Shown here: in pieces, positions 12,986-42,695 of the stretch
Numbering within the stretch: position 1 is the first letter of the stretch
How the letters are laid out: every line of letters starts with the position of its first letter
Assembly (NCBI GenBank): GCA_964535455.1
Contig: CAZHTZ010000005.1
Span: 1 to 44,900 of the forward strand
From: an uncultured Caldilineales bacterium
GTDB taxonomy: Bacteria > Chloroflexota > Anaerolineae > J102
Direction: 5' to 3'
DNA: 44,900 nucleotides
The notes under the pieces: model-generated
What the model saw: the letters and a program-made list of their open reading frames with translations, nothing else
Database searches by the model: none
What the model was told of the DNA's origin: nothing
Translations under genes and position numbers: made by a program

Positions 12986-13131
12986 CGGCCGGAAGCGCCT
13001 CGTATTCCAGATGCCGGAGCGAGTTGGACGCGATGGAGACGGGGAGTGGCGAAGATAGTGGAGATATGGCATAAGGAACAAGAGCCAAATCTACGCCGTT
13101 GAGTTTACGAACGCCGAGTTGCGTTACTATC

Positions 13132-15267
13132 ATGAAACGCCTGGCTATTCAGCGACAGAGCCTGCTTGTCCAAATCATCCTCGCCTTCGTGGCGCTGGTG
13201 CTCCTCACAGCAATCGTGGCTAACCTGCCGGCGCAGTGGCTGATCCGTGATCAGCAGTGGCGCCAGGCCTGGGCGCAGGTGGATCAAGGTGGCCAGGCGA
13301 CGCAAGCACTCTACGTTTCTAAGATAAACGAGGTGGTGGGCGTGGCGACCCTGACGGCCGAACGCCCTACACTGCACGCGTTGCTGGCCCAGGCCGACGC
13401 CGAAGCCGTCTCGACCTACCTGCGCACGCTGCAGTCCGGGGCCAGGGTGGATGCCGTGCTGATCTGCGACGTCGAAGGTCGGAGGGTGGCCAAGACAGGC
13501 GCAAGCCTGCCAGCCAGCCTGTGCAAAGCCGGCGAAGGGGCCGGTTTCTATGTAGCGCCAGAAGAGCGCATGCAACGTGTCTGGCTGCTTGCGGGTCGGC
13601 CCATCGTTGCCGACGGCGCGACTCAAGGTCTGGCAATCGTGGGGGAGCTGTTAGACCGTCAGTTTGCCGAACAAATGCGCACCCAGACTGGCTTGGAGCA
13701 CACGCTCTTCATGGGCAACGAGCAGGTGGCCACAAGTTTCGACAGCGGTGATAGCACCGGCGCGGCTACGCGCGAAGCTACTTCTGTCGAGCAGGATGGC
13801 GTTGAACGAGCCACATTCACATGGGGTGGCGAGCCGTATTTTGCCGCCCACCGTGCCTTAGCAGACATGCTTCCCGCCTATGAGCCTTTGCCTGCGAACC
13901 AGCCAGGTCCGCAGGTTGAGATCGCCTTGGCCGTGACCGATATGGTGAGCACGCAGCGGCGCCTTGCCCGCGCCCTTGCCGCCGGCATTCTTGCCGCGGT
14001 GCTGATGGGCTCCCTCCTTGGCGCCTTCCTGGCTCGGCGCATCAGCCGGCCGCTGGCGCGTTTGGCCGACGCCGCTGCCGCTCTTAGCGGTGGCACCCTG
14101 GACACCTCCCTGGCGAGTGAAACCCGGGTGCGTGAAGTGGCGCTGGTGGCTCAGGCTTTGGAGGAAGCCGGACGCGACTTGCAGCGCACCGTGGCCGAGC
14201 TGCGTCGTGAGAAAGCCTGGACCGATCACCTGCTTGAGGCCATTGTCGAGGGCATCATGACGCTGGATCACCAGGGACGCATCGTCTTCTTCAGCACCGG
14301 CGCCGAACGGATCACCGGCTGGCGTCGCACTGAGGTGATCGGGTGCTCCTGCGATCAAGTCTTCAAAATGGTAGAAACGGACGAGCGTTTCAGCCGGTTT
14401 CTCCCGGCGCCTGGCCTGCGCCAGAAAATCACCGTCGTCCTGGCAGAGGGCCGCCCGCGAACCCTGGATGTAACCGGAGCCAGACTGTTGCCTCCCGAAG
14501 CCGGCAATGCGCGGGTGGCCCTTGTGTTTCGGGACGTGAGCGAAGAGGAAGCCATCCATCGTCTGCTGGGCCATTTCCTGGCAAACGTTGCCCACGAGTT
14601 CCGCACGCCTCTCTCCGCCCTGGCTGCTTCCATCGAGCTATTGCGGGATCAGGCGCCTGATCTGAGCGCCGCCGAGCTGCAAGAGTTGCTGACATCGCTG
14701 CATCTTGGCATCATCGGCCTGCAGACGCTGGTGGACAATCTGCTGGAAGGAGCGAGCATCGAGGTCGGGCGTTTTCGCGTGTACCCCCGTCCCACGGACT
14801 TGGGCCGAATAGTGGCCGAGGCCGCTCAATTGATGCAGCCACTGCTCGAAAAGCGTGGTCAGCGTCTCACTCTGAGGCTTCCGCTGCCCCTGCCGGCTGT
14901 GCGGGCAGATATGCGCCGCACAGAACGGGCGTTGATCAACCTGCTGTCCAACGCCTGCAAGTACGGACCGGATGGGGCCGAGGTTGTGGTCGGGGCAACG
15001 GTGGATGGCGGCTGGGTGCGCGTGACGGTGGCCGACCAGGGGCCGGGTGTCCCACCCGAGCTCTGGCAAGACCTTTTCCGCCGTTTTCGGCGCTCCGATC
15101 CCGACAGCGGGGAGGCGCAGTACGGTGTGGGCCTGGGATTGTCAGTCGTCAGGGCTGTGATCGAGGCCCAGGGCGGCGCCGTGGGCGTCGAGAATCGGGC
15201 GGGCGGTGGCGCCATTTTCTGGTTCACTGTGCCTGTAGCAAACGATAGCGAGGTGGTGGAGCTATGA
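13132..15267 (+). CDS. Membrane sensor histidine kinase (extracytoplasmic Cache-like domain, HAMP, PAS, HisKA, HATPase)
   Basis: Two TM helices; HAMP ISRPLARLA; PAS EGIMTLD..GRI; H-box NVAHEFRTPL; NLLSNACKY, DQGPG, GLGL. Confidence 0.93.
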   Translation: MKRLAIQRQSLLVQIILAFVALVLLTAIVANLPAQWLIRDQQWRQAWAQVDQGGQATQALYVSKINEVVGVATLTAERPTLHALLAQADAEAVSTYLRTLQSGARVDAVLICDVEGRRVAKTGASLPASLCKAGEGAGFYVAPEERMQRVWLLAGRPIVADGATQGLAIVGELLDRQFAEQMRTQTGLEHTLFMGNEQVATSFDSGDSTGAATREATSVEQDGVERATFTWGGEPYFAAHRALADMLPAYEPLPANQPGPQVEIALAVTDMVSTQRRLARALAAGILAAVLMGSLLGAFLARRISRPLARLADAAAALSGGTLDTSLASETRVREVALVAQALEEAGRDLQRTVAELRREKAWTDHLLEAIVEGIMTLDHQGRIVFFSTGAERITGWRRTEVIGCSCDQVFKMVETDERFSRFLPAPGLRQKITVVLAEGRPRTLDVTGARLLPPEAGNARVALVFRDVSEEEAIHRLLGHFLANVAHEFRTPLSALAASIELLRDQAPDLSAAELQELLTSLHLGIIGLQTLVDNLLEGASIEVGRFRVYPRPTDLGRIVAEAAQLMQPLLEKRGQRLTLRLPLPLPAVRADMRRTERALINLLSNACKYGPDGAEVVVGATVDGGWVRVTVADQGPGVPPELWQDLFRRFRRSDPDSGEAQYGVGLGLSVVRAVIEAQGGAVGVENRAGGGAIFWFTVPVANDSEVVEL

Positions 15268-15971
15268 AGGCCATGGTCGTCGACGACGATCGGGTGTTGG
15301 CTGACCTGGTTGCCTTTGCCTTGCGCCGCGAGGGCTTCGACGTGATCCAGGCTCATGATGGCGAGGCCGCATTGCGACGCTGGACGGAGGAACAGCCCGA
15401 CCTGGTCGTGCTCGATGTGAACCTGCCGAAGCTCGATGGCTTCGCCGTCTGCCGGCGGATTCGCTCCCAGGCTGACATCCCCTCAAGCGGTCTACACACC
15501 GCCATCATCATGCTGACCGTGCGCAGTGAAGAGGACGATCTTGTGCACGGCCTGGAAGTGGGCGCCGATGACTACATCGCCAAGCCTTTCAGTCCGCGCC
15601 AGCTCGTGGCCCGCGCCCAGGCGGTTCTGCGTCGCACCGGCAGGGCTCCCGCCCCCACCCTCCGCCAGACCGGCCAGCTTACGCTTGACCCCTCCCGACG
15701 TGAAGTGCGTGTGGCGCAGCTCCACGACGAGGGCAACCCTGTGGCACTGACCCCGCTCGAATGCCGGTTGCTCGACTATCTGATGGCGAACGCAGGACGC
15801 GTGTTGACCACCGAAAGTATCATCGATCATGTTTGGGGGCCAGAAGGCGGCGACCGGGACATGGTGCGCCAGTTGATACGCCGGCTGCGCGCCAAAATCG
15901 AGCCAGATCCCACCCGGCCGACGTTTATCGAGACCGTGGCTGGCCTGGGCTATGGCTTGAAGCTTTCATAG
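15264..15971 (+). CDS. OmpR/PhoB-family response regulator
   Basis: VVDDD, LDVNLP, GADDYIAKPF; winged helix ending IETVAGLGY. Overlaps the kinase stop (ATGA). Confidence 0.95.
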   Translation: MKAMVVDDDRVLADLVAFALRREGFDVIQAHDGEAALRRWTEEQPDLVVLDVNLPKLDGFAVCRRIRSQADIPSSGLHTAIIMLTVRSEEDDLVHGLEVGADDYIAKPFSPRQLVARAQAVLRRTGRAPAPTLRQTGQLTLDPSRREVRVAQLHDEGNPVALTPLECRLLDYLMANAGRVLTTESIIDHVWGPEGGDRDMVRQLIRRLRAKIEPDPTRPTFIETVAGLGYGLKLS

Positions 15972-16081: not shown

Positions 16082-17944
16082 ATGTCTATTGTTCTCGATC
16101 AACTGACCAAGCGCTACGGCGGCCATCCTGTAGTGAACAACGTCTCACTCGAGGTAGCGGACGGGGAGTTCTTTGTTCTGCTCGGCTCCAGCGGCAGCGG
16201 CAAGACCACCGTCCTGAGCACCATCGCTGGCCTGACCGAAGCCGATCATGGTCGCGTTATTCTTCACGGTCGCGATGTCACCCATCTCCCCCCTCAGCAG
16301 CGACGCATCGGCTTCGTCTTTCAGAACTTCGCCCTATTTCAGTATATGACGGTGGCCGACAACATCGAGTTCGGTCTCAGCATCCGTAGAGTGTCGAGAG
16401 CCGAACGCCGTCGTCGTCGCGACGAATTGCTCGAGCTGGTGGGGTTGGCGGGTCTGGGTAATCGAATGCCTCGCCAGCTTTCCGGCGGACAGCAGCAACG
16501 GGTGGCGTTGGCCCGAGCGCTGGCTCACCAACCCGAAGCCCTGCTCTTGGATGAACCGTTGGGAGCCCTCGACGCCAAGATTCGTTCTGAGCTTCGCCGC
16601 ACACTGCGCGCTATCCAGCGCGAATTGGGTATCACCACCATCCTTGTCACCCACGACCAGGAGGAGGCGTTCGAGTTGGCAGACCGGCTGGGCGTGATGA
16701 ACTTTGGGCGGCTTCTAGAAGTGGGCCCGCCTGACGAATTGTATCGGCGCCCGCAAACCGAGTTCGTAGCCACCTTTCTGGGCACGGCCAATCTGCTGGT
16801 CGGCAAGCGCGCCAAGGGCGGAGTGCAGGTGGGGCCGGCTCAGTTCCCCTTGCCGGGTGAATTCGAAACGCGTTCTCAGGACGAGCGGGTGCAAGTGCTG
16901 TTCCGACCTGAAGATGTTGTGCTTGGCGACTCGACCATCACTCTCGATCACCCGTTGCTTGGTCGGGGACGGGTCGAGCAGATAAGCTCTGCCGGTTCAT
17001 TCGAGCGGCTGCGACTGCGCTTACCTCCCATCCCTGGCGTGCGACCTATTGCCCCACCGGTGACGTTTGGCGAGGATGCGGTGTTGGTGGAGGCGACCCG
17101 CCCCCAAGATCAGGTGGATCGTTTGCCTGTCCAGCCGGGTCAGGATATCTGGGTGGCGGTGCGTCGAGTCCACGCTCTGGCTCATCCTGGCCTGCGCTTT
17201 CTGATCGCCACTGATGGTTCGGTGCATGCGCAAGCCGCGCTCGACCTGGGCGGCCAAATCGCCCGTCTGGCCCACGCTCGCACTGTGCTCCTGGGTTACG
17301 GCCTGAAAGGCGAGGCGCTGCAACGCCATCTCCAGGTGGCCAAGGAGCAGTTGGGGAGTGGCCTGGCAGCGTTGGAGGCACGGGCTACCCTCGACCCTCT
17401 GGCCGAAGCCGTGAAGCGCGAGGTCGAGCGCTCGCCGTGTGATCTGGTCGTACTGGGCGCTGGCGGGCGCGAAGACCAGGCGCTGGCAGAACAGGTTTTC
17501 CAGGCGGGCGAGCACAACTTGCTGCTGGTTTCTCATTCTCGGCCAGCACTCAGTCGCGCTTTGATCTGCGTCACAAGCGGTGAGCAGGGAAAGGCCGATG
17601 TGCTCTTTGCCGGGCGATTGATGCGCCACTTGGGCGCCGAGGCTACGCTGCTGTCGGTGCTCCCTGATAACGACCCGCAGTCGTTGGAACAGGACAGAAC
17701 CGAACGATTCCTGGCCGGTGGTGTACGCTCGCTGGATGTGTTGGGCGTGCCTGCCCGCACACTCATGCGTTACGGCGCCACCACCGCCGAGATCAGTCTG
17801 GAGCTGAGCGAAGGCGGCTATGACCTCCTGGTGTTGGGAGCGCCTCTGGCGGACCTCGACGGACAGATCACACTGAACGGTGTGGTTGGCCAGCTCTTGA
17901 ACAAAGTCATGGAAGTACCGATCCTCATCGTTCGTTCCGCATAG
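16082..17944 (+). CDS. cysA: Sulfate/thiosulfate ABC ATPase CysA fused to tandem universal-stress-protein (USP) domains
   Basis: Walker A GSSGSGKT, LSGGQQQR, LLLDEP, VTHDQEEA. The C-terminal part has FLIATDGS...DLVVLGA and ALICV...DLLVLGA...PILIVR USP patterns. Operon with sbp/cysT/cysW. Confidence 0.88.
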   Translation: MSIVLDQLTKRYGGHPVVNNVSLEVADGEFFVLLGSSGSGKTTVLSTIAGLTEADHGRVILHGRDVTHLPPQQRRIGFVFQNFALFQYMTVADNIEFGLSIRRVSRAERRRRRDELLELVGLAGLGNRMPRQLSGGQQQRVALARALAHQPEALLLDEPLGALDAKIRSELRRTLRAIQRELGITTILVTHDQEEAFELADRLGVMNFGRLLEVGPPDELYRRPQTEFVATFLGTANLLVGKRAKGGVQVGPAQFPLPGEFETRSQDERVQVLFRPEDVVLGDSTITLDHPLLGRGRVEQISSAGSFERLRLRLPPIPGVRPIAPPVTFGEDAVLVEATRPQDQVDRLPVQPGQDIWVAVRRVHALAHPGLRFLIATDGSVHAQAALDLGGQIARLAHARTVLLGYGLKGEALQRHLQVAKEQLGSGLAALEARATLDPLAEAVKREVERSPCDLVVLGAGGREDQALAEQVFQAGEHNLLLVSHSRPALSRALICVTSGEQGKADVLFAGRLMRHLGAEATLLSVLPDNDPQSLEQDRTERFLAGGVRSLDVLGVPARTLMRYGATTAEISLELSEGGYDLLVLGAPLADLDGQITLNGVVGQLLNKVMEVPILIVRSA

Positions 17945-20742: not shown

Positions 20743-21618
20743 TCAGTGTCGCTTGCCAGTGACGCCGCGTACTCCGTCCCACACCCCGCGCAGCCGCGCT
20801 CGTGCAGCCTCGCCGCGCCAGGCCCTCAACGCCTCCCAAACGACCCTCCCGTGTCCGGCCAGAATGGCGCTGCCGTGCTGCCGCCAATCGGCAGGCTTCA
20901 GGCGCCAGCGGTGGAGCAACACGGTGTTGCGCCCCACGTAGTAACTGGCAATCACTCCTCCACCGGTGGCGCTCAGGTGGTGGTAGACTCTGGCCTCTGG
21001 AACGAAAACGCACTTCCAGCCCGCCTGCTGAGCGCGCCAAGCCAGATCAACATCTTCCAGCCACATGAACAGACGCTCGTCGAAGCCGCCGAGCTGTTCC
21101 CACGCGGTGCGGCGATAGGCGGCGGCCCCGCCGCAGGCGCCGAACACCTCGATCTGGTGGTCGTATTGACCCCGGTCGATTTCCCACACACCGCGGTTCT
21201 GAGGGATGAAGCCGGGGCCAAGCATGTCACCGGCGCTGTGCAAGGTGTCGCGGCGGTCAAACAGCAGCATCTTGCTGGCGGCTGCGCCCGCCTCAGGGTG
21301 GTCGGCCAGCGCCTGGCAGAGCGCTTCCAGCCAGCCTGGCTCTGCCTCGGTGTCGTTGTTCAGCATGACGACGACGTCGGCATGCGCCGCCTGTGCGCCC
21401 CGGTTGCTGGCAACGGTGAATCCCAGGTTTTCTGCCAAGGCCAACACCCGCACCTCGGGATAGTCCTCGCCAAGCAGGCGTAGGGAGTCATCGGTGGAGC
21501 CGTTGTCGACGACAATGACCTCGAATTGCGGGTGCGTCTGGCGGCGCAGGCTATCGAGGCACATGCGCAGATGGCGGGCGCCGTTCCAGTTGGCGATGAT
21601 GACGGCAGCAGAAAGCAT
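20743..21618 (-). CDS. Glycosyltransferase family 2 (rhamnosyltransferase-like)
   Basis: IANWNG, VVDNGSTD, NLGF, LNND, GGFDE..FMWLEDVDL. Confidence 0.9.
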   Translation of the reverse strand: MLSAAVIIANWNGARHLRMCLDSLRRQTHPQFEVIVVDNGSTDDSLRLLGEDYPEVRVLALAENLGFTVASNRGAQAAHADVVVMLNNDTEAEPGWLEALCQALADHPEAGAAASKMLLFDRRDTLHSAGDMLGPGFIPQNRGVWEIDRGQYDHQIEVFGACGGAAAYRRTAWEQLGGFDERLFMWLEDVDLAWRAQQAGWKCVFVPEARVYHHLSATGGGVIASYYVGRNTVLLHRWRLKPADWRQHGSAILAGHGRVVWEALRAWRGEAARARLRGVWDGVRGVTGKRH

Positions 21619-21655
21619 GAGCGGTGGCGTGCAGGCCGGCGGGCGCCTGGCTGCC

Positions 21656-22513
21656 TTACAGCCGGCCTTCCAGGCGCTCGTGCTCGACCCAGTTCGCGAC
21701 CGCTTCCTGCCAAGGGGGCAGCGTCACCCCGTAGGCGGCGGCGGAACGGTTGGCCAGCACGGCGCGCAGCGGGGGCTGGCTCGGCCGCGGCCACTCGGTG
21801 TGGGCGATAGGGGTGACAGGAATGTCACCGCGACCGCTTTGACGCAGCACCTCGCAGGCGAACTCGTAGCGACTGGCGAACCCGGTGTTGGTCAGGTGGT
21901 AGATGCCTGCCGGCGCCGAGCGCCCAACGAGGGCCAGGATGCCGGCAGCCAGGTCCGCGGCATACGTGGGGTTGCCGAATTCGTCGCCGACGACGCGTAA
22001 CTGCCCGTGCTTGTCGGCTCCAGCGATGATCTTGGATGGGAAGTTGTTGCCGCCTGGACCAAAGAGCCAGGCCGTGCGCACGATCAACACCAGGTCGTGA
22101 AAGTAGCGAGCTGCCGTCTCACCGGCGAGCTTGGAGCGAGCGTAAGCGCTGGCCGGGTGCGGCTGGTCCCACTCGTCATAAGGCAGAGAGGCCGTGCCGT
22201 CAAACACTTCGTTGCTCGAAACGTGCACGAGGGGAACCCCCAGGCGATGACAGGCGCGGGCCAGATGGCCCACGGCATGGGCATTGACGGCATAGGTCAG
22301 ATCGGGCTCGGTTTCCGCCCGGTCCACATTCGTGTTAGCAGCGGCATTGATGACGACCTGGGGCTGAAGCGTCCCCAGCACGTCCATAACCGCCATCGCA
22401 TCGGTCATGTCGAATTCCGGGAGATCCAGACCGACGTGCTCGAGTCCGGTCGGGAAGCTGTACAACATCCGGCCCAACTGGCCCTTGTGTCCAACGATGA
22501 CTAGTTTCGCCAT
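21656..22513 (-). CDS. rfbD: dTDP-4-dehydrorhamnose reductase
   Basis: GHKGQLG, INAAA.T.VD.AE, VFDG, YARSKLAGE, G.PT..DLA. Confidence 0.93.
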   Translation of the reverse strand: MAKLVIVGHKGQLGRMLYSFPTGLEHVGLDLPEFDMTDAMAVMDVLGTLQPQVVINAAANTNVDRAETEPDLTYAVNAHAVGHLARACHRLGVPLVHVSSNEVFDGTASLPYDEWDQPHPASAYARSKLAGETAARYFHDLVLIVRTAWLFGPGGNNFPSKIIAGADKHGQLRVVGDEFGNPTYAADLAAGILALVGRSAPAGIYHLTNTGFASRYEFACEVLRQSGRGDIPVTPIAHTEWPRPSQPPLRAVLANRSAAAYGVTLPPWQEAVANWVEHERLEGRL

Positions 22514-22544
22514 GACTTGTTCTGTCCTCGCACCAACAGGCGCC

Positions 22545-23201
22545 CTATTGCACCGGGTTTTCGAAGCGGAAACCGTGGCCGCGCACGGTGACGATGTAGT
22601 GATGATCGGGCTCTAGCTCGGTCAGGCGCTCTCGCAGACGCCGTACGAGGGCGTCGATGGCCTGCTCGGTGACGCCAGCGCTGTCAGCGTCCGGCCAGAC
22701 CACGCGTACGACTGCCTCCCGGTCGATGACGGCGCCATTGGCTTCGACCAGCGCGCTCAGAAGACGGAACTGGGCGATAGACAGAGGCGGGTCCAGCCCC
22801 CTGCCGTGGATTTCGACAGTGCGCCGGGTGTCGTCCAGCCGCAGATTTGATCGGGTGGTGGGCTGTGGCAGGTCGGCCGTGAGCGGCGCCGTGGCGCCGG
22901 CATCGACAAAGGTCAGACGGAAGCGCAAGGCAACCTGGATCTCGTCGCCATCTTGGAGGAGGTAGGGGCTGCTCACCACCTCACCGTTGACATAAGTACC
23001 GTTCTTACTGGCGTTGTCGACGAGATAGTAGCCCTCAGTTCGGCGCTCGATGGTTGCGTGTTCACGTGAGACCACGCGCTCGGGCAGGACGATATCGCAG
23101 TCAGGGGAGCGGCCTATGTTCAGTCGCTCACGATCAAGCGGCCAACGTCCGCCGCCCTCGCTGCGTTGCATGATGAGCATCGCGACTTCTTGCTGGGGCA
23201 T
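22545..23201 (-). CDS. FHA-domain plus OmpR-type winged-helix transcription regulator
   Basis: FHA: IGRSPDCD, VSREHA, SKNGTYVNG. C-terminal wHTH: DALVRRLRERL...TVRGHGFRF. Confidence 0.9.
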   Translation of the reverse strand: MPQQEVAMLIMQRSEGGGRWPLDRERLNIGRSPDCDIVLPERVVSREHATIERRTEGYYLVDNASKNGTYVNGEVVSSPYLLQDGDEIQVALRFRLTFVDAGATAPLTADLPQPTTRSNLRLDDTRRTVEIHGRGLDPPLSIAQFRLLSALVEANGAVIDREAVVRVVWPDADSAGVTEQAIDALVRRLRERLTELEPDHHYIVTVRGHGFRFENPVQ

Positions 23202-23224
23202 GGGCTGGGCTCAACGGGGAGGGG

Positions 23225-24229
23225 TCAGAGGAAGGAAGAACTGACGCTGACGATCAGGGCGAGCAACAAGAGGAGTGCGGCGGCGGCGACCAGCACGCGG
23301 TTGGCGAGCAGCGCCTCACCCCAGGTGGGCTCGATCACCTGGTAGACGCCGCCAGTGGTGACCGTGTCATGCGTGCTGAACAGAAGGTCGGTGAAGTCCT
23401 CCACCGAAGCCGGCCGGTCGTCAGGGTGCATGGCCATCGCCGCCATGATCGCCCGCTCGGTTGTGGCCGAGATGGCGGGGTTGATCGTGCGGGGCAGGGC
23501 CAGGCTGCCCGGATGAAGGAAGCGTTGTCGCGCATCGATGGGCGCTCGCAGCGTGAGCAGATGATACAGGGTCGCACCCAGGGCGTAGATGTCGGTGCGA
23601 ACGTCCGTGTGACCCCCATCGCCGCCATATTGCTCCAGGGGCGTGTATTGGACCGTGCCGCGTCCCTGGACAGCGGTGACCGTGCGGTTTTCATCTGGTT
23701 CCACCACCTTGACGAGCCCAAAGTCTACGAGTTTGATGTGTCCGCTGGGGGTCAGCTTGATGTTGGACGGCTTGATATCGCGGTGCAGGATCACGGGAGT
23801 GCGAGTGTGCAGATAGGCAAGGGCATCACACAGTTGCCGGGCCCATTCCATGACCTCCTCTTCTGGAAGGAACTCGCCCTGACTTCGGGCATCGTCCATC
23901 AGCTCCTTCAGGTCCTTGCCAGGCACATAGTCCATGAGCAAGTACTCGCGGTTTTCCTGCGAGAAATAGTCGCTCACCTTGGGCAGGTTGGGATGGTCGA
24001 GCTGGGCCAGGGTGCTGGCTTCCTGGTAGAACTGCGCCTGATAGGAAGCGAGCTCTTCCTGATAGGCCACAAGGCCCGGCAGGATTTCCTTGACGGCGCA
24101 CAGCCGTCCGGTGAGCCGAAGGTCGGAGGCCCGATAGACGGCGCCCATGCCACCCTGACCGATGAGCTCGAGGATCTCATAGCGCTCACGCAGAACGGTG
24201 CCAGGAGGGAGCACGGACAGGGAAGTCAT
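23225..24229 (-). CDS. Hanks-type Ser/Thr protein kinase with a C-terminal membrane anchor
   Basis: IGQGGMGAVY, AVKE, HRDIKPSNI, DFG, GTVQYTPLEQ, DIYALG; ends with a single TM. Start set at ATG 24229. Confidence 0.93.
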   Translation of the reverse strand: MTSLSVLPPGTVLRERYEILELIGQGGMGAVYRASDLRLTGRLCAVKEILPGLVAYQEELASYQAQFYQEASTLAQLDHPNLPKVSDYFSQENREYLLMDYVPGKDLKELMDDARSQGEFLPEEEVMEWARQLCDALAYLHTRTPVILHRDIKPSNIKLTPSGHIKLVDFGLVKVVEPDENRTVTAVQGRGTVQYTPLEQYGGDGGHTDVRTDIYALGATLYHLLTLRAPIDARQRFLHPGSLALPRTINPAISATTERAIMAAMAMHPDDRPASVEDFTDLLFSTHDTVTTGGVYQVIEPTWGEALLANRVLVAAAALLLLLALIVSVSSSFL

Positions 24230-24249
24230 GACGTCACCATGGGCGGGTG

Positions 24250-27237
24250 CTACTCGGCAGCCACGAGTTCGGGACGCAGCCGGTCGGCCAGGAAAGGAAG
24301 CAGGCCGCCGGCGAAGGCAACGACCGCAGCGGCGCCTTCGCTCAAGAGCCCATTGAGAGCAGCACCACCTGGCAGCCATCCGACGGCATACAACAGGTAG
24401 AGCATCTGGCTGCCGATGATTGACAGCAACAAGCCACGCAGCAGCGCCTCACGTTCGTGACGGTTGTTGTAAGAGTAGCCGTAGAGGGCGGCAGCGGCAG
24501 CGCTGCCAATCAGAGCCAGGAGGAAGGATACCAGGCTTACGCGTTGGCCAGCGCCCAGCAGCCCTTTGCCCGTCGCGGGCTGTATCGAACCGTTGTTTGC
24601 AGGCGGCGGGGGGGTAGGGGTCGGCCTCGCCGTCGGTGCCGGGCTGGGAGTGGGGGTGGTTTCGGGGGTGGGTGTATGGGTGGGGGTCGGACGTGCCGTG
24701 GCGGTCGACAGCAAGGCGCGTGTTGCGCCGCCCACCGTCAACAGCAGGGTGTCAGAGGTGGCGCCTTCGCCGGCAGTGGCCGAGAGCTGCAGGCTTCCCG
24801 CTCGTTCGATTTTCAGCAAGGCGCTGGCCATGCCCTTGTTGGTGACCGCTTGCTGGCGGGGCAACTCGATCCCCTCTTGCAGGTCCTGAAAGCGGAACTC
24901 AGCCTGGGTGCCGTCAGGCACGATATTGTGGTTTTGGTCACGGATCGGTCCCGCTCTCAGCTCAATGCTGTCGCCAACGGCGAGGTCGATACGGCCGCTG
25001 CCGGTATCTCCCACCGGGGCCGGGCCGGTCCCGGACTGGGTGAGCAGGGCCAGGGGAAAACGCTGGCTCGGGTCGGGTTCAAGTTGGCGTCCCAGATTGT
25101 AGTCCACACCCGTGACGCTGACGGGCAAGTGTCCGGCAGGGGCCAGTTCGCGGAAGAGGGTGCGGACGGCCGTCTCCAGGAAAGGCCCCACCTTGCTATA
25201 CAGACCGTAGTAGGCCGTCAGCTTCCCGATCTCCGTGTCGCTCAGGAAGTAGGGAGCGTTGAAAGAGAAGACGATGAGGTTCTTATCGCGCAGGTTGTCG
25301 GCGCGTTGATCCAGGAAGCGCCGTAGTGCTCCCGAACTGGGTGCCGCCTCGGCGTCGACATCCTGCAAGGCGAATATGATCCAGTTGGCGCGGTCGATCA
25401 GTTCGTTGATCTGCTGCATCCGTTCTTGGGCGAGCTGCCTGTCAGGTGGGATGCTGACGGGGTCGGTGTTTTGACGGAGGAAGGTATCCAGCTCGGCGAA
25501 ACCCATGCTGTTGACGCTATTCTCGTCCAGTTGGTCGCTGGCCTGGGGGCCATACAGTCGCAGCATGATCTGTGCCAACGCCCCCGCAGGAATCGATTGC
25601 GTGGCCTGGCAGGCGGGGCACTCCGTGACCGTGCGCTCATCGGTGAAGACGAGGATGCGGTCGGTCTTTAGCGGCGCACTGGGCAGGCGATCGGCAAGCT
25701 CGGTGGCCCCGGGATAGATGAGTGTGATGCTGTTGCGTGCGACCTGGGTCACCAGATCATTGCCTTTGTTCAAACGATCAGGGAGATCGTCCTTGGGTCG
25801 TTGGGTCGCGGCCCAGCTCAGGCGCGGGTTCAGCCTCAGTTTGAGACGCAGGATGCGCGTCACCGATTCATCCACGCGGGCGCGGAATGCCGGGTCCTCC
25901 TCGTATTTCTGCTCGAAGTAGGACATGGCGTCCTGCATGTTCTTGACCTGTTCCGGCCAGTTGCCATCCCTGTCGAACTCGGCCAGGATGAGCAGGTCAT
26001 TGCCGGCCAGAAACGCTTCCTGTGCCACGCGCCGGCTGGGAAAACGGTCGGGTTCGTAGGCCTGGTAATAACGCTTGAGCGCACCCACTCCCAGGCTGTC
26101 GGCAACGAGAAGACCTCCGTTCGCCCGCCAGTTCTTGAACTGGCCCATAATGGTTTGCAGCTCAGGAGCCAGCGAGATGGGGGGAGTCAACTGGCGCGGG
26201 TTCTCCTGAAAGCCCTTGTAGCGCACATGCGACGTCATCAGGGCGTCGGTGGTCTCGTCCGAGGTGTCGGGGACTTCGGTGACGGCCTGGAATGGCACCA
26301 GCTCCACCTGCTGCAGCGCCGATAGGGGCTTCTGCACGGTGGCCACCTCGCGATCGGGCCGGCGGTCGCTGGCGCCCTGACCGGGGAAGTGCTTGGCGAC
26401 GGTCGCCACACTGCCGCCTGACCCCTGATGGACGCCGGCGATATAGGACTTGCCCATCTGCGCTACCCAGTAGGCGTCACCGCCAAAGGTGCGCGTGCCG
26501 GGGTACCCTTTTAGTTCCGGTCTGGGGTTGTCCAGGACATCCAGGGAAGGCCCCAGCAACAGGTTGATGCCCGTGGCTGCCAATTCCTGGCCGACGACAG
26601 CACCCACCTGCCGGGCAAGGTCAGGTTGCCAGGTGGCGCCCAGGGCGAGGTTGTTGGGGATGGGCGTGAACCCGTTGGTGAGACCGGTGAAGGGATAGCC
26701 GTCGCCTTCCTGGTTGATGGCGATCAGCAAAGGCAGACCAGGGATGCCATCAGCCAGAGACGGGTTGAGTTTGCCGTCCTCGCCAACGACGCCGGTGTTG
26801 AGGTCACGAAAGGCGAAGGTCTGCAGGTCGTTGGTCAATTGAGTGACCGCCTCCGCCGTATTGCCTTCGTTGCGGAAGTTCTCGTTTTCAGGCGTCAGGA
26901 CGACCCCACCCACATGCCAGTCTCGGATGAGATGGGCCACGTCGCTATTGGGCCCCACGTCGTTTCCCTTGAAGGTGATAAGGAAGAGTTGGCCCACGCG
27001 CTGCGGCACGGACATGCGCGCCAGGATTTCCTGGGCCAACGCTGCCGTCTCCTGATCGTTGCTGACGTGAGGGGCGTCCGGCGCCGGGCGCGGGGTGTCC
27101 ACTGGCGCTGGTGTTGGTGTTGGTGTGTCACTTCCTTGGGCGCTGGCAGGGAGAAGCGGCGCCACCCATCCCCACAGGAGTAGCCCAAGCAGCAGGTAGA
27201 GACCCAGTTGGCGAGCGAAGGCCGGGCGAGATCGCAT
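24250..27237 (-). CDS. Exported, membrane-anchored glycoside hydrolase family 3 (NagZ-like) protein with a Pro/Thr linker and 3 C-terminal TMs
   Basis: Signal peptide; VGQLF, NQEGDG, GINLLLGPSLDV, RTFG, KHFPGQG, ADSL, AGNDLL; PT repeats; three hydrophobic C-terminal helices. Start ATG 27237. Confidence 0.88.
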   Translation of the reverse strand: MRSRPAFARQLGLYLLLGLLLWGWVAPLLPASAQGSDTPTPTPAPVDTPRPAPDAPHVSNDQETAALAQEILARMSVPQRVGQLFLITFKGNDVGPNSDVAHLIRDWHVGGVVLTPENENFRNEGNTAEAVTQLTNDLQTFAFRDLNTGVVGEDGKLNPSLADGIPGLPLLIAINQEGDGYPFTGLTNGFTPIPNNLALGATWQPDLARQVGAVVGQELAATGINLLLGPSLDVLDNPRPELKGYPGTRTFGGDAYWVAQMGKSYIAGVHQGSGGSVATVAKHFPGQGASDRRPDREVATVQKPLSALQQVELVPFQAVTEVPDTSDETTDALMTSHVRYKGFQENPRQLTPPISLAPELQTIMGQFKNWRANGGLLVADSLGVGALKRYYQAYEPDRFPSRRVAQEAFLAGNDLLILAEFDRDGNWPEQVKNMQDAMSYFEQKYEEDPAFRARVDESVTRILRLKLRLNPRLSWAATQRPKDDLPDRLNKGNDLVTQVARNSITLIYPGATELADRLPSAPLKTDRILVFTDERTVTECPACQATQSIPAGALAQIMLRLYGPQASDQLDENSVNSMGFAELDTFLRQNTDPVSIPPDRQLAQERMQQINELIDRANWIIFALQDVDAEAAPSSGALRRFLDQRADNLRDKNLIVFSFNAPYFLSDTEIGKLTAYYGLYSKVGPFLETAVRTLFRELAPAGHLPVSVTGVDYNLGRQLEPDPSQRFPLALLTQSGTGPAPVGDTGSGRIDLAVGDSIELRAGPIRDQNHNIVPDGTQAEFRFQDLQEGIELPRQQAVTNKGMASALLKIERAGSLQLSATAGEGATSDTLLLTVGGATRALLSTATARPTPTHTPTPETTPTPSPAPTARPTPTPPPPANNGSIQPATGKGLLGAGQRVSLVSFLLALIGSAAAAALYGYSYNNRHEREALLRGLLLSIIGSQMLYLLYAVGWLPGGAALNGLLSEGAAAVVAFAGGLLPFLADRLRPELVAAE

Positions 27238-27243
27238 GACGCG

Positions 27244-27272
27244 AGTATAGGAAGGTTGCATAAGGGTGTCAA
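27244..27272 (-). promoter_or_regulatory. Near-consensus sigma-70 promoter, probably producing a leaderless mRNA
   Basis: Minus strand: TTGACA (27272-27267), 17 nt, TATACT (27249-27244), 6 nt, ATG (27237). Confidence 0.75.
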
Positions 27273-33759: not shown

Positions 33760-34635
33760 CTATCGCCGACGGTTGGCCAGCCACACCCCCAGGAAAATCA
33801 ACGTCATCGCCATGATCTGGGACCAGTGCAGGGGCTCGTTCAAGAAGATGACGCTGTAGGTCACGGCGAACAGCGGGATGACATAGGTCACCATCGTCGT
33901 GGGCGTGGCGCCAATGCTTTTGAGCAGGGAAAAGTACATCAGATAGGCCAGTCCCGTCCCCAGCACGCCCAACCAGAGGGCTGAGAACCAGGCGAGTGGG
34001 GTGGGGTGCAGCGTCCAGGGCTGTTCAATCAGCAGGGCTGGGAGCAGCATCCACAAAAAGGCCAGGCTGATCTGGCTGGTGGACAACACTGCTGCCGGAA
34101 CCCCGTGCAGACGCTTTCGAGCAAAAACACTTCCAATGGCATAGCCCAAGGACGCGATGATAATGGCGATCTCGCCGGCCAGGCGATTGCCGCCGCTCTG
34201 GAGCAGGAGATCAGGGACGAAAAGCACCAACACCCCCACAAAGCCCAAGAGCACCCCTCCTCCCCGCCGCAAGGTCATGCGCTCATCGCTCAGGGCCAGG
34301 TGCGAAAGCAGGACGGCGAACAACGGAACCGAGCTATTGAGAATGGCAGTCAGGCTCGAGGTGATGAATTGCTCGCCCCAGGTGATGAGTGTAAACGGGA
34401 TGACGTTGTTGAAGAAGGCGAGGATGGCGATCGAGATGAGGAGGCGGCGCTCGCGCGGGAAGTGGAGACCTTGCCGCCAAAGCAGGGCCAGCATGACCAC
34501 GGACCCGAACAGCAGACGCAGGGTCACCAGGGTCAGCGGGTGGAACCCACCCTGCAGCCCAAGCTTGATGAACATGAAGGAGGAGCCCCAGATGGCGCTG
34601 AGGCCCACGAACAATGCTGCGTCGCGACGGGTCAT
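33760..34635 (-). CDS. EamA/DMT family transporter
   Basis: IWGSSFMFIK, PFTLITWGEQ; about 10 TM segments. Confidence 0.9.
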   Translation of the reverse strand: MTRRDAALFVGLSAIWGSSFMFIKLGLQGGFHPLTLVTLRLLFGSVVMLALLWRQGLHFPRERRLLISIAILAFFNNVIPFTLITWGEQFITSSLTAILNSSVPLFAVLLSHLALSDERMTLRRGGGVLLGFVGVLVLFVPDLLLQSGGNRLAGEIAIIIASLGYAIGSVFARKRLHGVPAAVLSTSQISLAFLWMLLPALLIEQPWTLHPTPLAWFSALWLGVLGTGLAYLMYFSLLKSIGATPTTMVTYVIPLFAVTYSVIFLNEPLHWSQIMAMTLIFLGVWLANRRR

Positions 34636-34789
34636 GCTGGACCTTGAGTGGCAACCGGTGTGGGCGTCGACACGTTCGGCCCTGTCTGGCGACCGTCCAT
34701 CCCACCCAGCGGATTCCCGGAATCATAGTGGGCGGCGGGCGGCGGCTGCAAACCCGGCGCGTCGGACCAAGCCTATGATCCTGGGATCG

Positions 34790-34798
34790 TGCTATAAT
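34790..34798 (+). promoter_or_regulatory. Putative extended -10 promoter for the CYTH-CHAD gene
   Basis: TG-C-TATAAT. Confidence 0.5.
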
Positions 34799-34897
34799 TC
34801 CCAGCATCCCGCGTTTGGTGGCCGGACAAGGATGAATGCCGGAGCTCGCCGTCCCATCAGTCCGAAGCGCATCTACTCGCGACGAAATGTGGAGAAC

Positions 34898-36532
34898 ATG
34901 GCAGTACATCGTGAGATTGAATGGAAGTATTGGATACCTGATGCCGAGGTGCTGCAGCGCTTGCTCCAGGCGCAGCAACTGGGCCCTTATGCCATTGGCG
35001 CCTTTCAGACCGGACGCGTCGTCGACACCTACTATGACACGCCTGACCGGTCATTTGCCGCTGCCGGTTACGCCTTCCGCTACCGGCAAATGGGTGAAGA
35101 GTCGGTGGTACAGCTCAAGACCCTGACCCCGCCACAGGATGGGGTCCACCGCAGGGTTGAGCTGCACCTCCAGACTGACGAACCCGCCCTTCCGGCCAAC
35201 TGGCCGCCTGGGCCTGCGCGTGACCTGGTCTTTCGCACGCTGCAGGACCAGCTTCTGGCGCAGCTTTTTCGCATCGAGCAACTGCGACACGTTGCCCCCC
35301 TGTCAGGGCCGGCCGGTCCGATCGCAGAACTCAGCCTCGATGAAGTCCGCTGGGTGAGCGCCGGCCGCGATTGCGAGGCATTTGAGTTGGAGATCGAGCT
35401 TGGAGAGGGCGAGGACGATCAAGCCTTGTTCGCCGTCACCAACGAACTGGAGACAGTCTGGCAGCTCCTTCCGCAGTCACGCTCGAAATACGAGCGCGGC
35501 CTTGAGTGGGTGTCGTCAATCGCTGCTGCCGAGGCTGAGACGACCCCCATTGCCTCCTCCGAGGCGCCGGAACGGCGCGAACCGCGCAAGCGACCTGGCA
35601 TCCCGTTTCAACTTGATGAGCCTGCCACCGCTCTCATTCATCGCATCATTGTAGTCCAAACCGAGAAACTGCACGCCAAGCATGCGAGCGTGATGAAGGG
35701 GGAGGATGCTGAGGCGGTGCATGATGCCCGTGTCGCCACACGCCGCATGCGCAGCGGCCTTTATTTCTTTGGGCCCTGGGCGCCGCGTCGCATGGCCAAA
35801 GACCTGCGCCGTGGGCTGCGGGATGCCGCCCGTGCTCTGGGATCGGTGCGCGACCTCGACGTGAGCCTCGCTTTCGTGCACGAGCACGCTCCCCAAGTCG
35901 CACCGGCGGCCGAAGAACCATTGCGCCGCTACCTGGAGGCCGAGCGCCGCCGCGCTCGTTCCGATCTGCTCAACTTCTACAAAGGACCCGGGTACAAGAG
36001 CCTGCAGAAGACCCTCAACCAGTTCGTCCGTGCCAAGGTCTCCGGCCGCACCAGGTTGGCAGATATCCTACCGGGACTGGTCAATCAGGCGACCACCGAG
36101 CTTCATGTCTTCCATGGCACGCTCGTCCCCGGCAGTCCGGTAGAACACCTGCACGCCCTGCGCATTGCCATCAAACACCTGCGTTATCTGCTCGAGTTCA
36201 CCCGTCATGCCGCCTATCCCGCCAGCGACCCGTTGATCGGTCTGATGACAGACATCCAGGAGGAGATCGGTCAGGTGCATGATGCGCACGTCAGCTGTCT
36301 TCTGGCTTTTGATCTTCTTCGTCGTTCCGATCTGTCTCTAAGCGCGGACGACCGCGACGCACTACTCGCCTATGGTCTTGCCCTGGGCCGCTACCGTGAC
36401 GAACGCGCCGCCCAATTCATCGTCGCACAGCCCCCACCACCCTGGGCGACATGGCTCGACGACGGCACGCAGGAGCAGGTGGCAGAAATTGCCGCTCTGT
36501 TGGGTGGCCATTTCGAGCGGGTGCAGGAGTGA
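34898..36532 (+). CDS. CYTH + CHAD domain protein (YgiF-like triphosphatase/polyphosphate-binding)
   Basis: CYTH: EIEWK, DTYYDT, ELEIEL, SKYERG. CHAD: VHDARVATRRMRS, LG.VRDLDV, LHALRI..K.LRY, IG..HD. Alternative start at ATG 34832. Confidence 0.9.
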   Translation: MAVHREIEWKYWIPDAEVLQRLLQAQQLGPYAIGAFQTGRVVDTYYDTPDRSFAAAGYAFRYRQMGEESVVQLKTLTPPQDGVHRRVELHLQTDEPALPANWPPGPARDLVFRTLQDQLLAQLFRIEQLRHVAPLSGPAGPIAELSLDEVRWVSAGRDCEAFELEIELGEGEDDQALFAVTNELETVWQLLPQSRSKYERGLEWVSSIAAAEAETTPIASSEAPERREPRKRPGIPFQLDEPATALIHRIIVVQTEKLHAKHASVMKGEDAEAVHDARVATRRMRSGLYFFGPWAPRRMAKDLRRGLRDAARALGSVRDLDVSLAFVHEHAPQVAPAAEEPLRRYLEAERRRARSDLLNFYKGPGYKSLQKTLNQFVRAKVSGRTRLADILPGLVNQATTELHVFHGTLVPGSPVEHLHALRIAIKHLRYLLEFTRHAAYPASDPLIGLMTDIQEEIGQVHDAHVSCLLAFDLLRRSDLSLSADDRDALLAYGLALGRYRDERAAQFIVAQPPPPWATWLDDGTQEQVAEIAALLGGHFERVQE

Positions 36533-39848: not shown

Positions 39849-40059
39849 GCGGCAGGGTTATCCCCCGTTGGACGCGGCCTCAAGTGCCGCAACGCCACAA
39901 CGGTCGATTCAGCTGGTTACAGCTGTTGAAATCGTTGCCTAATTCTTGTTTTCGAATGCTTTGACCGCAAACAGCCGCGGGTGACCGGGGATCGGTTGTC
40001 GGGATCGAGAGCCAAGACTACCATCGTCTCTCGGGCCGCGCGCAAAGATGGATAGTCGA

Positions 40060-40288
40060 ATGACCGATCTTATGGAGAAAGCCCTGGCGACCGTCCGAAC
40101 GTTGGACCACCGAGCAGCAGGACGAGGCGGCGGAGATCCTGCTGGCGCTGGGTCGGCTGGGTTCTGGCCCATACCGTGCCAGCGTTGCGGAGTTGAGCGC
40201 CGTGGATGAGGCGCTGGCCCAAGTCGAGCACGGCGAATTTGCGACCGAGGCGGAGATCGAGGCCGCCTATTCGCGATTCCGCAAGTGA
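40060..40288 (+). pseudogene. Frameshifted antitoxin of a RelE/ParE-type module
   Basis: MTDLMEKALATVR, then after one extra base near 40099: RWTTEQQDEAAEILLALG...AVDEALAQVEHGEFATEAEIEAAYSRFRK*. Its stop overlaps the toxin start (GTGA). Confidence 0.65.
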
Positions 40289-40497
40289 CCGCTCGCTACA
40301 GCGCCCGAGCCACGCGAGACCTCACCGATATTGCAGACTACTTGATTGGCCTCAGCCCCACGGGCCAGCTCGGTCGAACGTGGCATCCGCAGAACGATCG
40401 AACTGATTTGATCTTCTACGCGATACAGGGAGACCACGTCGTCGTACTCCATATCCGGCATGCGGCCCGCCGACCGGTTGATCCGAACGAACTGTAG
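40285..40497 (+). pseudogene. RelE/ParE-family toxin, internally shortened
   Basis: N-terminal YSARATRDLTDIADYL and C-terminal LIFYAIQGDHVVVLHIRHAARR are present. At 70 aa, the central helix/loop appears to be missing. Confidence 0.65.
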
Positions 40498-40514
40498 CTC
40501 TGCTCGGCCGCGCG

Positions 40515-41378: not shown

Positions 41379-41448
41379 CGCTCCCTCCCGATCTGCGAAT
41401 CCCAGTATGCACACGGTCTCGTCAAAATGTCAGGCTAGCTCACCTGCC

Positions 41449-42111: not shown

Positions 42112-42122
42112 CGGACGCCCGC

Positions 42123-42695
42123 TCAGGCGGCGCCGCGGGGCGGCAGGCCGAGACCGATGCAGTAGGCCACCGCCGGCTGCCACACGACGAACAGCAGGCG
42201 CAGATCGACGATCTCCCGGTCCCCCAGGTAGTAGAGCAGGCCGGCCAGCGCGCCGACCGCGATGGTCGTCGCCGCGCGCCGCACCGCGCGCAGCTCGTGC
42301 ACCAGCAGCGCACAGCCCAGATGCGTCACGCCCGCTCCGACCGCGCCGGCGGCCAGGCTGCCGAGGATCTGCCGCAGATCGCTGTTGGTGTTCATCACGC
42401 CGATCGCGGTGTGGATCGCCGCACTCCAGGCAAACATCGTCGCCACCAGCACCACCGGGACCGCCGAGAGCTGTCCTTTGGCGAACCAGACTCCCGTCGC
42501 CATGGCTACCGCGAAGAAAATCCCGATCGGCATCGCCCCGGCATCGAGGAAGAACAGCCTGCCGGGCAGCGCCAGCCACGCCGGCTCATAGGTCATGCCG
42601 GCCACGGCCGAGAGCACGCCCGACACCAGGCCGAGCGCTGCCAGCACCACGGCCGGCCGCGTGCGCGCTGCATCCACGAAGGTCGCTACCGCCAT
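42123..42695 (-). CDS. Hypothetical multi-pass membrane protein
   Basis: About 6 hydrophobic segments; co-oriented downstream of recO. Confidence 0.7.
   Translation of the reverse strand: MAVATFVDAARTRPAVVLAALGLVSGVLSAVAGMTYEPAWLALPGRLFFLDAGAMPIGIFFAVAMATGVWFAKGQLSAVPVVLVATMFAWSAAIHTAIGVMNTNSDLRQILGSLAAGAVGAGVTHLGCALLVHELRAVRRAATTIAVGALAGLLYYLGDREIVDLRLLFVVWQPAVAYCIGLGLPPRGAA

Follow-up and report, generated by a model that had tools for sequence, protein, structure and literature searches.

Organization of the locus

We have analysed a locus in a 44,900-nucleotide stretch of DNA, hereafter the window, from an uncultured Caldilineales bacterium of the class Anaerolineae (positions 1 to 44,900 of contig CAZHTZ010000005.1, assembly GCA_964535455.1). 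At its centre are three genes, encoding a membrane protein of glycoside hydrolase family 3 (GH3) that resembles the glycosidase NagZ, a Hanks-type Ser/Thr kinase, and a small regulator in which an FHA domain is combined with a winged helix-turn-helix (wHTH). Genes for RmlD and a family-2 glycosyltransferase (GT2) follow. The initial annotation, made from the sequence of the window, had read all five as one glycan-sensing signalling operon. The features, in coordinates of the window, are:

24250..27237, minus strand: gene for the GH3 (NagZ-like) membrane protein, 995 amino acids (1003 from an alternative ATG at 27261)
23225..24229, minus strand: gene for the Hanks-type Ser/Thr kinase, 334 amino acids
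22545..23201, minus strand: gene for the FHA-wHTH regulator, 218 amino acids
21656..22513, minus strand: gene for RmlD (dTDP-4-dehydrorhamnose reductase), 285 amino acids
20743..21618, minus strand: gene for the GT2, 291 amino acids
27272..27244, minus strand: promoter-like site TTGACA-17 nt-TATACT, 11/12 consensus matches, -35 box at 27272

By these coordinates the five genes are co-oriented and separated by 20, 23, 31 and 37 nt, in agreement with the 20-37-bp gaps of the initial annotation. On the 3' side the unit is flanked by a convergent gene for a permease of the ATP-binding cassette (ABC) type (plus strand, ending at 20730, 12 nt away), and on the 5' side by divergent YceD/FabD/FabG genes (plus strand, from 27371, 133 nt away). 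Domains were assigned by Pfam and NCBIfam profile searches of the five proteins. RmlD scored 251.8 bits with model TIGR01214 (cut-off 224.05) and thus belongs to this equivalog, and the GT2 matched Glycos_transf_2 with 97.5 bits; rmlD (rfbD) and a GT2 gene do lie 3' of the FHA gene in the window, as had been annotated.

The -10 box of the promoter-like site ends 7 nt upstream of the ATG at 27237, and we therefore regard this ATG as the likelier GH3 start (995 amino acids) and predict a leaderless GH3 transcript. The N-termini of orthologs are consistent with this start. Sites of the TTGACA/TATACT type number 2 in 10 kb, against 1.3 expected by chance. In related loci the same type of promoter, by consensus match, is found directly ahead of the kinase start. 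Promoters of the form TTGACA-17-(T/C)ATAAT that end about 7 nt before the start were noted for the GH3 gene of the window and for the kinase gene in loci, such as L068, L072-L075, L090, L110 and L119, whose whole kinase-FHA intergenic region measures just 52-57 bp. This suggests that leaderless mRNAs are common in the lineage, and that in the loci with 52-57 bp the FHA gene would have to be served by a promoter overlapping that of the kinase or the coding region. In the organism of the window, RmlD and GT2 are probably co-transcribed with the three genes ahead of them.

A tail-anchored Hanks-type kinase

The kinase domain matched PF00069 with 136.6 bits (cut-off 31.7, residues 17-285), which places the protein among the Hanks-type kinases. 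All of the 46 orthologs compared carry K47, H149-R150-D151, N156 and D169-F170-G171, and the activation-loop threonines T183 and T185 are likewise invariant among orthologs. A single transmembrane segment at about residues 311-329 (23243-23299) is preceded by a conserved juxtamembrane segment, W303-x2-A306-x3-N310, and followed by only 5 residues outside, so that the kinase does end right after its sole transmembrane segment, as first described. In 21 aligned orthologs, too, few or no residues lie beyond the membrane. By its sequence, the protein is a Hanks kinase with a full set of catalytic motifs that is anchored to the membrane by its C-terminal tail and lacks an extracytoplasmic domain. 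Against the PASTA-kinase model NF033483 it scored 202 bits, from the kinase part only, where the cut-off is 450, and is thus not assigned to that family; no match to the PASTA domain was found in the window's own genome (81% complete).

A minimal FHA-wHTH regulator

The initial annotation had the third protein join an FHA domain to an OmpR-type DNA-binding domain, and both Pfam domains were found above their cut-offs: FHA (PF00498) with 83.3 bits against 20.7 at residues 28-90, and the OmpR/PhoB-type winged helix Trans_reg_C with 56.3 bits against 26.2 at residues 140-213. G30, R31, S45, R46, H48 and N67 are invariant in 17 orthologs, and positions of this type we take to be the phosphothreonine contacts of the FHA domain. 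The disordered linker between the domains (104-117) opens with an invariant A103-T104-x-P106-L107 motif. In the AlphaFold2 (AF2) model, with a predicted local distance difference test score (pLDDT) of 82 and a predicted TM-score (pTM) of 0.50, the linker is disordered and the two domains have no fixed orientation. A docking of the A-T-x-P-L motif into the FHA pocket had been considered as well, but found no support in this model.

No Response_reg (REC) match was found in the protein, in which the FHA domain sits N-terminally, and it is thus not an OmpR/PhoB response regulator; a true REC-wHTH regulator is encoded elsewhere in the window (15264-15971; Response_reg 104.9 bits). Nor was a BTAD domain matched at E ≤ 0.01, and FHA domain and winged helix stand in the opposite order to those of EmbR, which sets the protein apart from the EmbR/SARP family. 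What its domains describe is a small regulator made of a putative phosphothreonine-binding FHA domain and an OmpR-type DNA-binding domain, and since it is reduced to these two parts the FHA domain stands in the place of the receiver. Related proteins fall into at least 6,267 clusters, all generically named.

A TGTCAA/ATTATGG element shared by the regions between the kinase and FHA genes was considered as an OmpR-type repeat and rejected: on the kinase strand it is the TTGACA-17-CATAAT promoter, about 7 nt before the kinase start. Locus L071 differs from the other loci in that its kinase-FHA intergenic region has, ahead of the promoter, a run of short tandem repeats with GTGAAGCGTGATGC-like units.

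A NagZ-like membrane protein with an altered catalytic loop

The first gene encodes a member of GH3, matching the N-terminal domain PF00933 (Glyco_hydro_3) with 142 bits and carrying Asp380 at the nucleophile position. The AF2 model, built with 46 orthologs, has a mean pLDDT of 84 and comprises a signal-like helix (1-33), a TIM barrel (about 60-470), an alpha/beta sandwich (about 500-720), an immunoglobulin (Ig)-like beta sandwich (729-835) and three helices (902-922, 929-951 and 958-994). Stretches rich in Pro and Thr (PT) at about 27-55 and at 838-896, the latter a linker, are disordered. The signal peptide, PT stalk and three C-terminal transmembrane helices of the initial annotation were thus all recovered, from sequence and model. 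Two parts of the protein are of particular importance below:

26349..26393, minus strand: altered catalytic loop KHFPGQGASDRRPD, GH3 residues 282-295, in which the NagZ motif KHFPGHGxxxxD[ST]H is replaced and the Asp-His acid/base dyad is gone
24256..24534, minus strand: three C-terminal transmembrane helices (AF2 model and sequence)

The best Foldseek matches of the model were 6k5j and B. subtilis NagZ/YbbD (4gyj/3bmx), which are two-domain beta-N-acetylglucosaminidases. The motif of NagZ is KH[FI]PG[HL]Gx4D[ST]H. In alignments to YbbD and 6k5j, the D-S-H of YbbD falls on R-P-D in the loop KHFPGQGASDRRPD, while the KH(F)PG motif, the Arg and the nucleophile Asp380 (D318 of YbbD) are kept. With the NagZ equivalog model NF003740 the protein scored 67.4 bits (cut-off 207), and it is thus not a NagZ in that sense.

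The change, which had been annotated as an altered NagZ, is family-wide, as the dyad was present in 0/57 distinct orthologs. Nine of these 57 are also without the nucleophile Asp (replaced by Gly in five, Glu in two, Pro in one and Asn in one), and most of the nine still adjoin a kinase gene. A 585-residue classical NagZ from genome G027 (locus L058), by comparison, has the DSH dyad and no transmembrane segment. S-D-R of the altered loop, including D291 and R292, is at least 90% conserved among the orthologs, and the sugar-pocket residues H283, R249 and D233 are conserved. In the transmembrane region, which is kept also in orthologs that are not beside the kinase, the most conserved stretch is the motif G-x3-Y-x-LY-x-LG-x-LPG of the second helix.

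Since the dyad is lost in all orthologs and the nucleophile Asp also in 9/57, hydrolysis is not the conserved function of the protein. The conserved role is more likely binding, given that the nucleophile-less orthologs keep the architecture and mostly the kinase neighbour, and that the sugar pocket is kept. An acid/base residue supplied by the second GH3 domain, as in beta-glucosidases, was considered and rejected: the sole near-invariant acidic residue there, E697, belongs to a common F-x-E...LPV motif. As this C-terminal motif occurs in NagZ enzymes too, the sequence gives no sign of a substitute catalytic Glu. A protein language model returned solely unnamed Chloroflexota clusters as look-alikes of the C-terminal 271 residues.

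In genomes G010, G013, G016, G018, G023 and G024 the GH3 gene is cut by a contig end at the PT-rich linker. Because this repetitive linker evidently breaks short-read assemblies, neighbour surveys that ignore contig breaks would undercount the triad.

Conservation of the three genes

The genes were followed through 41 genomes, namely that of the window, 6 others from its genus, 18 further members of its family (f1) and 16 from other families of the class. Orthologs were accepted at E ≤ 1e-90 for the kinase and E ≤ 1e-30 for FHA-wHTH, and the classical NagZ of G027 was counted as a non-ortholog. Adjacency was read from coordinates; for six metagenome-assembled genomes (MAGs) in which a contig break divides the GH3 gene, the C-terminal fragment beside the kinase was used.

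GH3 and kinase orthologs were each present in 37 of the 41 genomes and absent from the same four (G019, G027, G029 and G030), so that the two are jointly present or jointly absent in 41/41 genomes. FHA-wHTH was present in 39 and absent from G029 and G030; in G019, which is 87% complete, the FHA gene lies at a contig start. All three occur together in 37/41. The GH3 and kinase genes are adjacent in 28 genomes, apart in 5 (G001, G005, G035, G037 and G038) and not evaluable at contig ends in 4 (G020, G021, G031 and G039); the kinase and FHA genes are adjacent in 32, apart in 3 (G025, G032 and G037) and not evaluable at contig ends in 2 (G012 and G038). The triad is thus kept together, with adjacency in 28/33 and 32/35 evaluable genomes, and the lack of conservation that the initial annotation had named beforehand as the first of its grounds for rejecting its proposal was not what we found.

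Adjacency of GH3 and kinase extends to 8/11 evaluable families outside that of the window. All three genes of the triad point the same way in f1; outside this family the kinase gene is inverted (GH3> <STK FHA>, where STK is the Ser/Thr kinase), and the 3' ends of the GH3 and kinase genes are close or overlapping. The two stay side by side in G032, G025 and G113, from which the FHA gene has been displaced to another place in the genome, and the genes that flank the triad differ between families.

Genome G026 has two complete triads. They lie on contigs C36 and C86 of a MAG that is 93% complete with 5% contamination, and the second FHA copy carries an internal TAG; either the module was duplicated as a unit or two strains were binned together. 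In the same-genus MAG G005 the FHA-wHTH gene (G005:C306:165-814) reads in two frames, matching query residues 3-132 and 134-217, which is a frameshift or an assembly error.

A survey centred on the FHA gene, with one genome per species, gave 559 confirmed relatives, of which the best 80 loci, a few of them overlapping the 41-genome set, were analysed. Their record titles name Anaerolineae, Anaerolineales, Caldilineales/Caldilineaceae, Thermoflexales and Promineifilaceae. Among these best 80, a kinase gene adjoins the FHA gene in 69/71 loci whose upstream sequence is long enough (divergent in 61, co-oriented in 8), and a GH3 gene lies within 8 kb in 29/57 loci that can be judged in the same way. 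In five Caldilineaceae-type genomes that were checked the GH3 ortholog is located elsewhere in 5/5, with the PT linker and transmembrane segments confirmed in 4/5.

In a phylum-wide search of 120 other genomes (E ≤ 1e-85), the kinase ortholog was found in 13: 8/8 genomes of family f18, 2/2 of f20 and 1/1 of f21 (same class), and 2/2 of f23; in the remaining 107 it was not found at this threshold. Both f23 genomes, labelled as another class, have the full triad. The complete genome G113 has GH3 and kinase adjacent with the FHA gene 21 kb away, and in the complete genomes G086 and G131 kinase and FHA are adjacent, with GH3 0.8 and 2.3 Mb away. With the kinase as the hub, each partner is therefore able to stay beside it without the other. 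Judged by this gene order, the conserved unit is three genes, not five.

Proposed function of the module

We tentatively propose that the locus encodes a class-wide pair of a kinase and an FHA regulator whose partner outside the cytoplasm is the GH3 protein, most likely acting as a co-receptor that binds glycans; we regard this as quite possible rather than established. By analogy with PknH-EmbR, the kinase and FHA-wHTH are almost certainly a kinase and its effector. The kinase would autophosphorylate on threonines of the activation loop or of the juxtamembrane segment, the FHA domain would dock on these phosphothreonines, and the regulator would be phosphorylated or brought together, with altered DNA binding as the result. 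The FHA domain would in this way do the job of the receiver domain of a response regulator. We infer these steps from the near-universal adjacency of the two genes and from the PknH-EmbR precedent.

That the GH3 protein may be the kinase's partner outside the cytoplasm is suggested by conserved adjacency, phyletic co-occurrence and the fold result given below. Its NagZ-derived ectodomain, with a sugar pocket and no dyad, would bind a terminal beta-GlcNAc-type envelope glycan, for example a product of peptidoglycan turnover, and would most likely bind rather than efficiently cleave it; the three-helix membrane domain would relay occupancy to the transmembrane and juxtamembrane segments of the kinase. 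A functional link between the two proteins is indicated by their joint presence and absence, by adjacency over many families and a second class, and by the survival of that adjacency through kinase inversion and loss of the FHA gene, with the triad staying while the flanks vary. A co-receptor that supplies input to a sensor-less kinase is, by analogy, the most economical model. A terminal beta-GlcNAc glycan as the ligand is putative, and so are the direction in which the signal would run and any regulon. The most specific form of the proposal is a three-part system of the Anaerolineae class in which a NagZ-derived pseudo-glycosidase as ligand-binding subunit, a tail-anchored Hanks kinase and a minimal FHA-wHTH would report the status of envelope glycans (e.g. 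GlcNAc-terminated peptidoglycan fragments) straight to DNA; in this complete form we consider it doubtful.

The initial annotation also had the GH3 protein signal through the membrane to the kinase. A complex of kinase residues 1-334 and GH3 residues 885-995 was folded in three runs from 46-row alignments in matching order. The score was 0.48 (runs 0.47-0.49), with 0.00 for the best of 3 controls, partner pLDDT was at least 71, and at least 74% of the contacts were common to the runs; the verdict of the tool was 'weak support'. In the calibration of the tool the mark was reached by 58/80 solved complexes and 2/110 mismatched pairs, and scores of 0.60 or below comprised just 7 of the 80 solved complexes plus both mismatches that passed. 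What stands of the proposed contact is weak support, from a score above the controls. We take the predicted fold as a small rise in the chance of contact, not as evidence of binding.

A number of observations weigh against the co-receptor model. At a fold score of this size a pass is more likely to be wrong than right; and as the controls were natural proteins without relation to the pair, which need not have been membrane helices, the predicted contact may be no more than the generic packing of helices in a membrane. GH3 is not beside the kinase in 28/57 loci of the FHA-centred survey, mostly under the labels Caldilineaceae, Litorilinea, Promineifilaceae and Amarolinea, nor in two genomes of the window's own genus (G001 and G005), and in the complete genome G037 all three genes are apart. 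A tie of the triad to peptidoglycan synthesis was considered and dropped, as MurG is present in genomes without the triad (G027, G029 and G030) and with it (G001 and G037), with no correlation. PASTA domains occur in 10/41 genomes, namely in 1 of the 24 other genomes of the window's family and, alongside the triad, in 9/16 of other families; because of this coexistence the module is not simply a substitute for PASTA kinases, an idea that was likewise given up. The nucleophile Asp is kept in 48/57 GH3 orthologs and D291 is nearly invariant, from which a modified hydrolytic or phosphorolytic mechanism may be envisaged. Finally, the ortholog alignment revealed no conserved Ser/Thr or other signalling motif in the cytoplasmic loop and tail of GH3, and no operator motif was found in 65 distinct divergent kinase-FHA intergenic regions.

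Several of these points would fit the main rival, in which kinase and FHA-wHTH form a self-contained cytoplasmic pair, GH3 is an independent membrane-anchored envelope glycosidase (e.g. in GlcNAc/peptidoglycan turnover), and the adjacency is inherited order. GH3 is separated in 5/33 evaluable relatives as well as in about half of the FHA-centred loci, with its architecture intact there; the kinase-FHA link is the tighter one (69/71); most orthologs keep the nucleophile; the nearest folds are active NagZ enzymes; and the fold test gave weak support. Under such independence, however, one would have to account for GH3-kinase adjacency in at least nine families and a second class, through kinase inversion and loss of the FHA neighbour, when other GH3 neighbours are not kept past the genus; for joint presence or absence in all 41 genomes; and for a dyad gone in every ortholog, together with the nucleophile in nine. 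We consider this rival rather improbable but credible, because adjacency is absent in about half of the FHA loci and the genes of G037 are all apart.

The same adjacency and co-occurrence, and the same weak support for GH3-kinase contact, would be expected if control ran from the inside out, with the kinase contacting or phosphorylating GH3, as an enzyme or scaffold, to tune cell-wall remodelling, and with FHA-wHTH as a parallel transcriptional output. Hanks kinases of Actinobacteria control envelope enzymes via membrane partners. The cytoplasmic loop and tail of GH3, however, are without conserved Ser/Thr, and GH3 was for this reason rejected as a phospho-substrate; moreover, the nucleophile-less orthologs offer no catalysis to regulate, yet adjoin the kinase. 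Inside-out control thus appears unlikely.

RmlD, GT2 and other neighbours

Among the GH3- and FHA-centred loci examined, just two have RmlD and GT2 genes 3' of the FHA gene, that of the window and that of G003, the nearest relative, whose proteins are 84-92% identical; in locus L128 a GT2-like match lies 5 kb downstream. A HemW-like radical-SAM gene (Radical_SAM plus HemN_C) follows the FHA gene in 7/10 other loci scanned, and unrelated genes in 3. The HemW-like genes (L033:7194-8363, L034:9000-10157, L040:6441-7802, L042:6256-7617, L079:8642-9907, L100:8675-9973 and L133:8687-9850) span several orders, with one from a genome of the same genus (L033), three more of the family, and Caldilineaceae- and Amarolinea-labelled records. 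The HemW-like gene is a fourth frequent neighbour of the module.

Given this restriction to the window and G003, we regard RmlD and GT2 as a recent local arrangement. By this distribution they lie outside the conserved module and are not its conserved output, and they were probably acquired recently; the rhamnose/GT2 output of the initial annotation was accordingly not borne out. A model in which FHA-wHTH controls rhamnose and GT2 surface-glycan synthesis as the output of a five-gene system can draw on the arrangement in the window and G003, where both genes are on the same strand 3' of FHA, with 31/37-nt gaps and no terminator-like site between. However, G003 is the only other locus examined that shares this order, a HemW-like gene or something else taking the place in the ten scanned, and genes in a regulator's operon would be co-expressed with the regulator, not switched by it. 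We consider the five-gene model very unlikely.

YceD/FabD genes lie beside GH3 in 2/30 GH3-centred loci, both of the same genus. In the Caldilineaceae-type loci L079, L085, L087-L089, L092 and L097, where GH3 is away from the kinase, YceD-FabD-FabG are found about 3 kb downstream of the FHA gene. Since these genes are divergent from GH3 in the window and near FHA elsewhere, the window region and the Caldilineaceae-type loci seem to derive from one rearranged ancestral neighbourhood.

Other features of the window

A 620-residue protein encoded at 16082-17944 (plus strand) combines an ABC-transporter ATPase with a weaker C-terminal match to a universal stress protein (Usp) domain (residues 492-618, E 2.6e-07, no single stretch passing alone). 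Its gene is followed by those of a solute-binding protein and two permeases; ahead of it, at 13099-15971, a histidine kinase with CHASE4, HAMP and PAS domains and a response regulator of the OmpR type are encoded. At 34157-36532 (plus strand) a 791-residue CYTH plus CHAD protein is encoded, and a predicted open reading frame (ORF) for an EamA transporter overlaps it on the opposite strand (33760-34635). CYTH and CHAD domains are associated with triphosphate and polyphosphate. From 40001 to 44900 the G+C content rises from about 0.62 to 0.67-0.71, with several long overlapping ORFs on both strands.

Comparison with known systems

The kinase domain is closest to the model of the PASTA kinases (PknB/PrkC/StkP type), which are likewise single-pass membrane Hanks kinases, although the window kinase has no PASTA domain and stays below the cut-off of NF033483. 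The proposed ligand class, a peptidoglycan-derived glycan, would be analogous. The kinase identity across the class is 56-91%, among the highest of the locus, and the gene is single-copy in most genomes searched. On account of this conservation, and of the same two partners in many families, the kinase probably has a central part in the physiology of the envelope or of growth in a large group of bacteria, for the most part uncultured, that abounds in sediments and wastewater sludge.

The GH3 protein shares with B. subtilis NagZ/YbbD (3bmx and 4gyj) an extracytoplasmic location and a two-domain fold (Foldseek E of about 1e-32 to 1e-33, target-normalised TM-score 0.76-0.78), to which it adds the Ig-like domain, PT linker and three transmembrane helices, and in which the dyad is replaced. 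If it is the receptor of the kinase, it would be a clear example of an enzyme fold, that of a glycoside hydrolase, serving a bacterial Ser/Thr kinase as signalling ectodomain, and would provide a testable entry (ligand, kinase, regulator and regulon) to the way in which Chloroflexota sense their cell envelope. Even otherwise, the kinase and FHA-wHTH are an uncharacterised class-wide regulator pair.

Intramembrane-sensing histidine kinases borrow their sensor, as BceS does with the BceAB transporter. BceS-BceAB and the window kinase share the logic of a scant extracytoplasmic part and a separate membrane protein for input, whereas the former uses a histidine-aspartate phosphorelay and the latter would use Ser/Thr phosphorylation with an FHA read-out; the proteins are unrelated.

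PknH has its own extracellular sensor domain, which the window kinase lacks. In Mycobacterium tuberculosis, PknH and EmbR are a pair of a membrane Hanks kinase and an FHA/OmpR-type regulator, with the FHA domain mediating recognition and phosphorylation (PMC9239209). The arrangement of a membrane Hanks kinase gene beside that of a regulator with OmpR/PhoB-type and FHA domains is the same here. In contrast to the wHTH-BTAD-FHA order of EmbR, however, the window regulator is FHA-linker-wHTH, with no BTAD found, and whereas EmbR shares an operon with pknH only (PMC9239209), the conserved set here includes a GH3 membrane protein as its third gene.

The GlnH-GlnX-PknG-OdhI/GarA system of Actinobacteria is described as one of a split sensor, a sensor-less kinase and an FHA substrate (PMC8546545). 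As we propose for our locus, a sensor-less Hanks kinase is encoded with an extracytoplasmic ligand-binding partner and signals to an FHA protein. In that system a solute-binding lipoprotein and a separate membrane protein play the roles that one GH3 protein would combine here, PknG is soluble with a TPR domain whereas the window kinase is tail-anchored, and OdhI/GarA inhibits an enzyme whereas the window FHA protein carries a DNA-binding domain (PMC8546545). No GlnH, GlnX or PknG-TPR domains were found in the five proteins by Pfam and NCBIfam searches; the sequence relationship is limited to the kinase and FHA domains, and the resemblance is in logic only.

The input route of sensor-less Hanks kinases is known for very few systems, and for regulators that read phosphothreonine directly, by way of an FHA domain, EmbR is the main example. 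In open-licence PMC and bioRxiv full text (main texts only) we found no description of a GH3/NagZ-kinase-FHA module, of an OmpR-type regulator with an N-terminal FHA domain, or of a Chloroflexi/Anaerolineae kinase of this type. The view of the initial annotation that no characterised system has this layout was nevertheless overstated when set against GlnH-GlnX-PknG-GarA and PknH-EmbR (PMC8546545, PMC9239209). What is new is the set of parts, i.e. the GH3 ectodomain, the tail-anchored kinase and the minimal FHA-wHTH; the design principle is already known.

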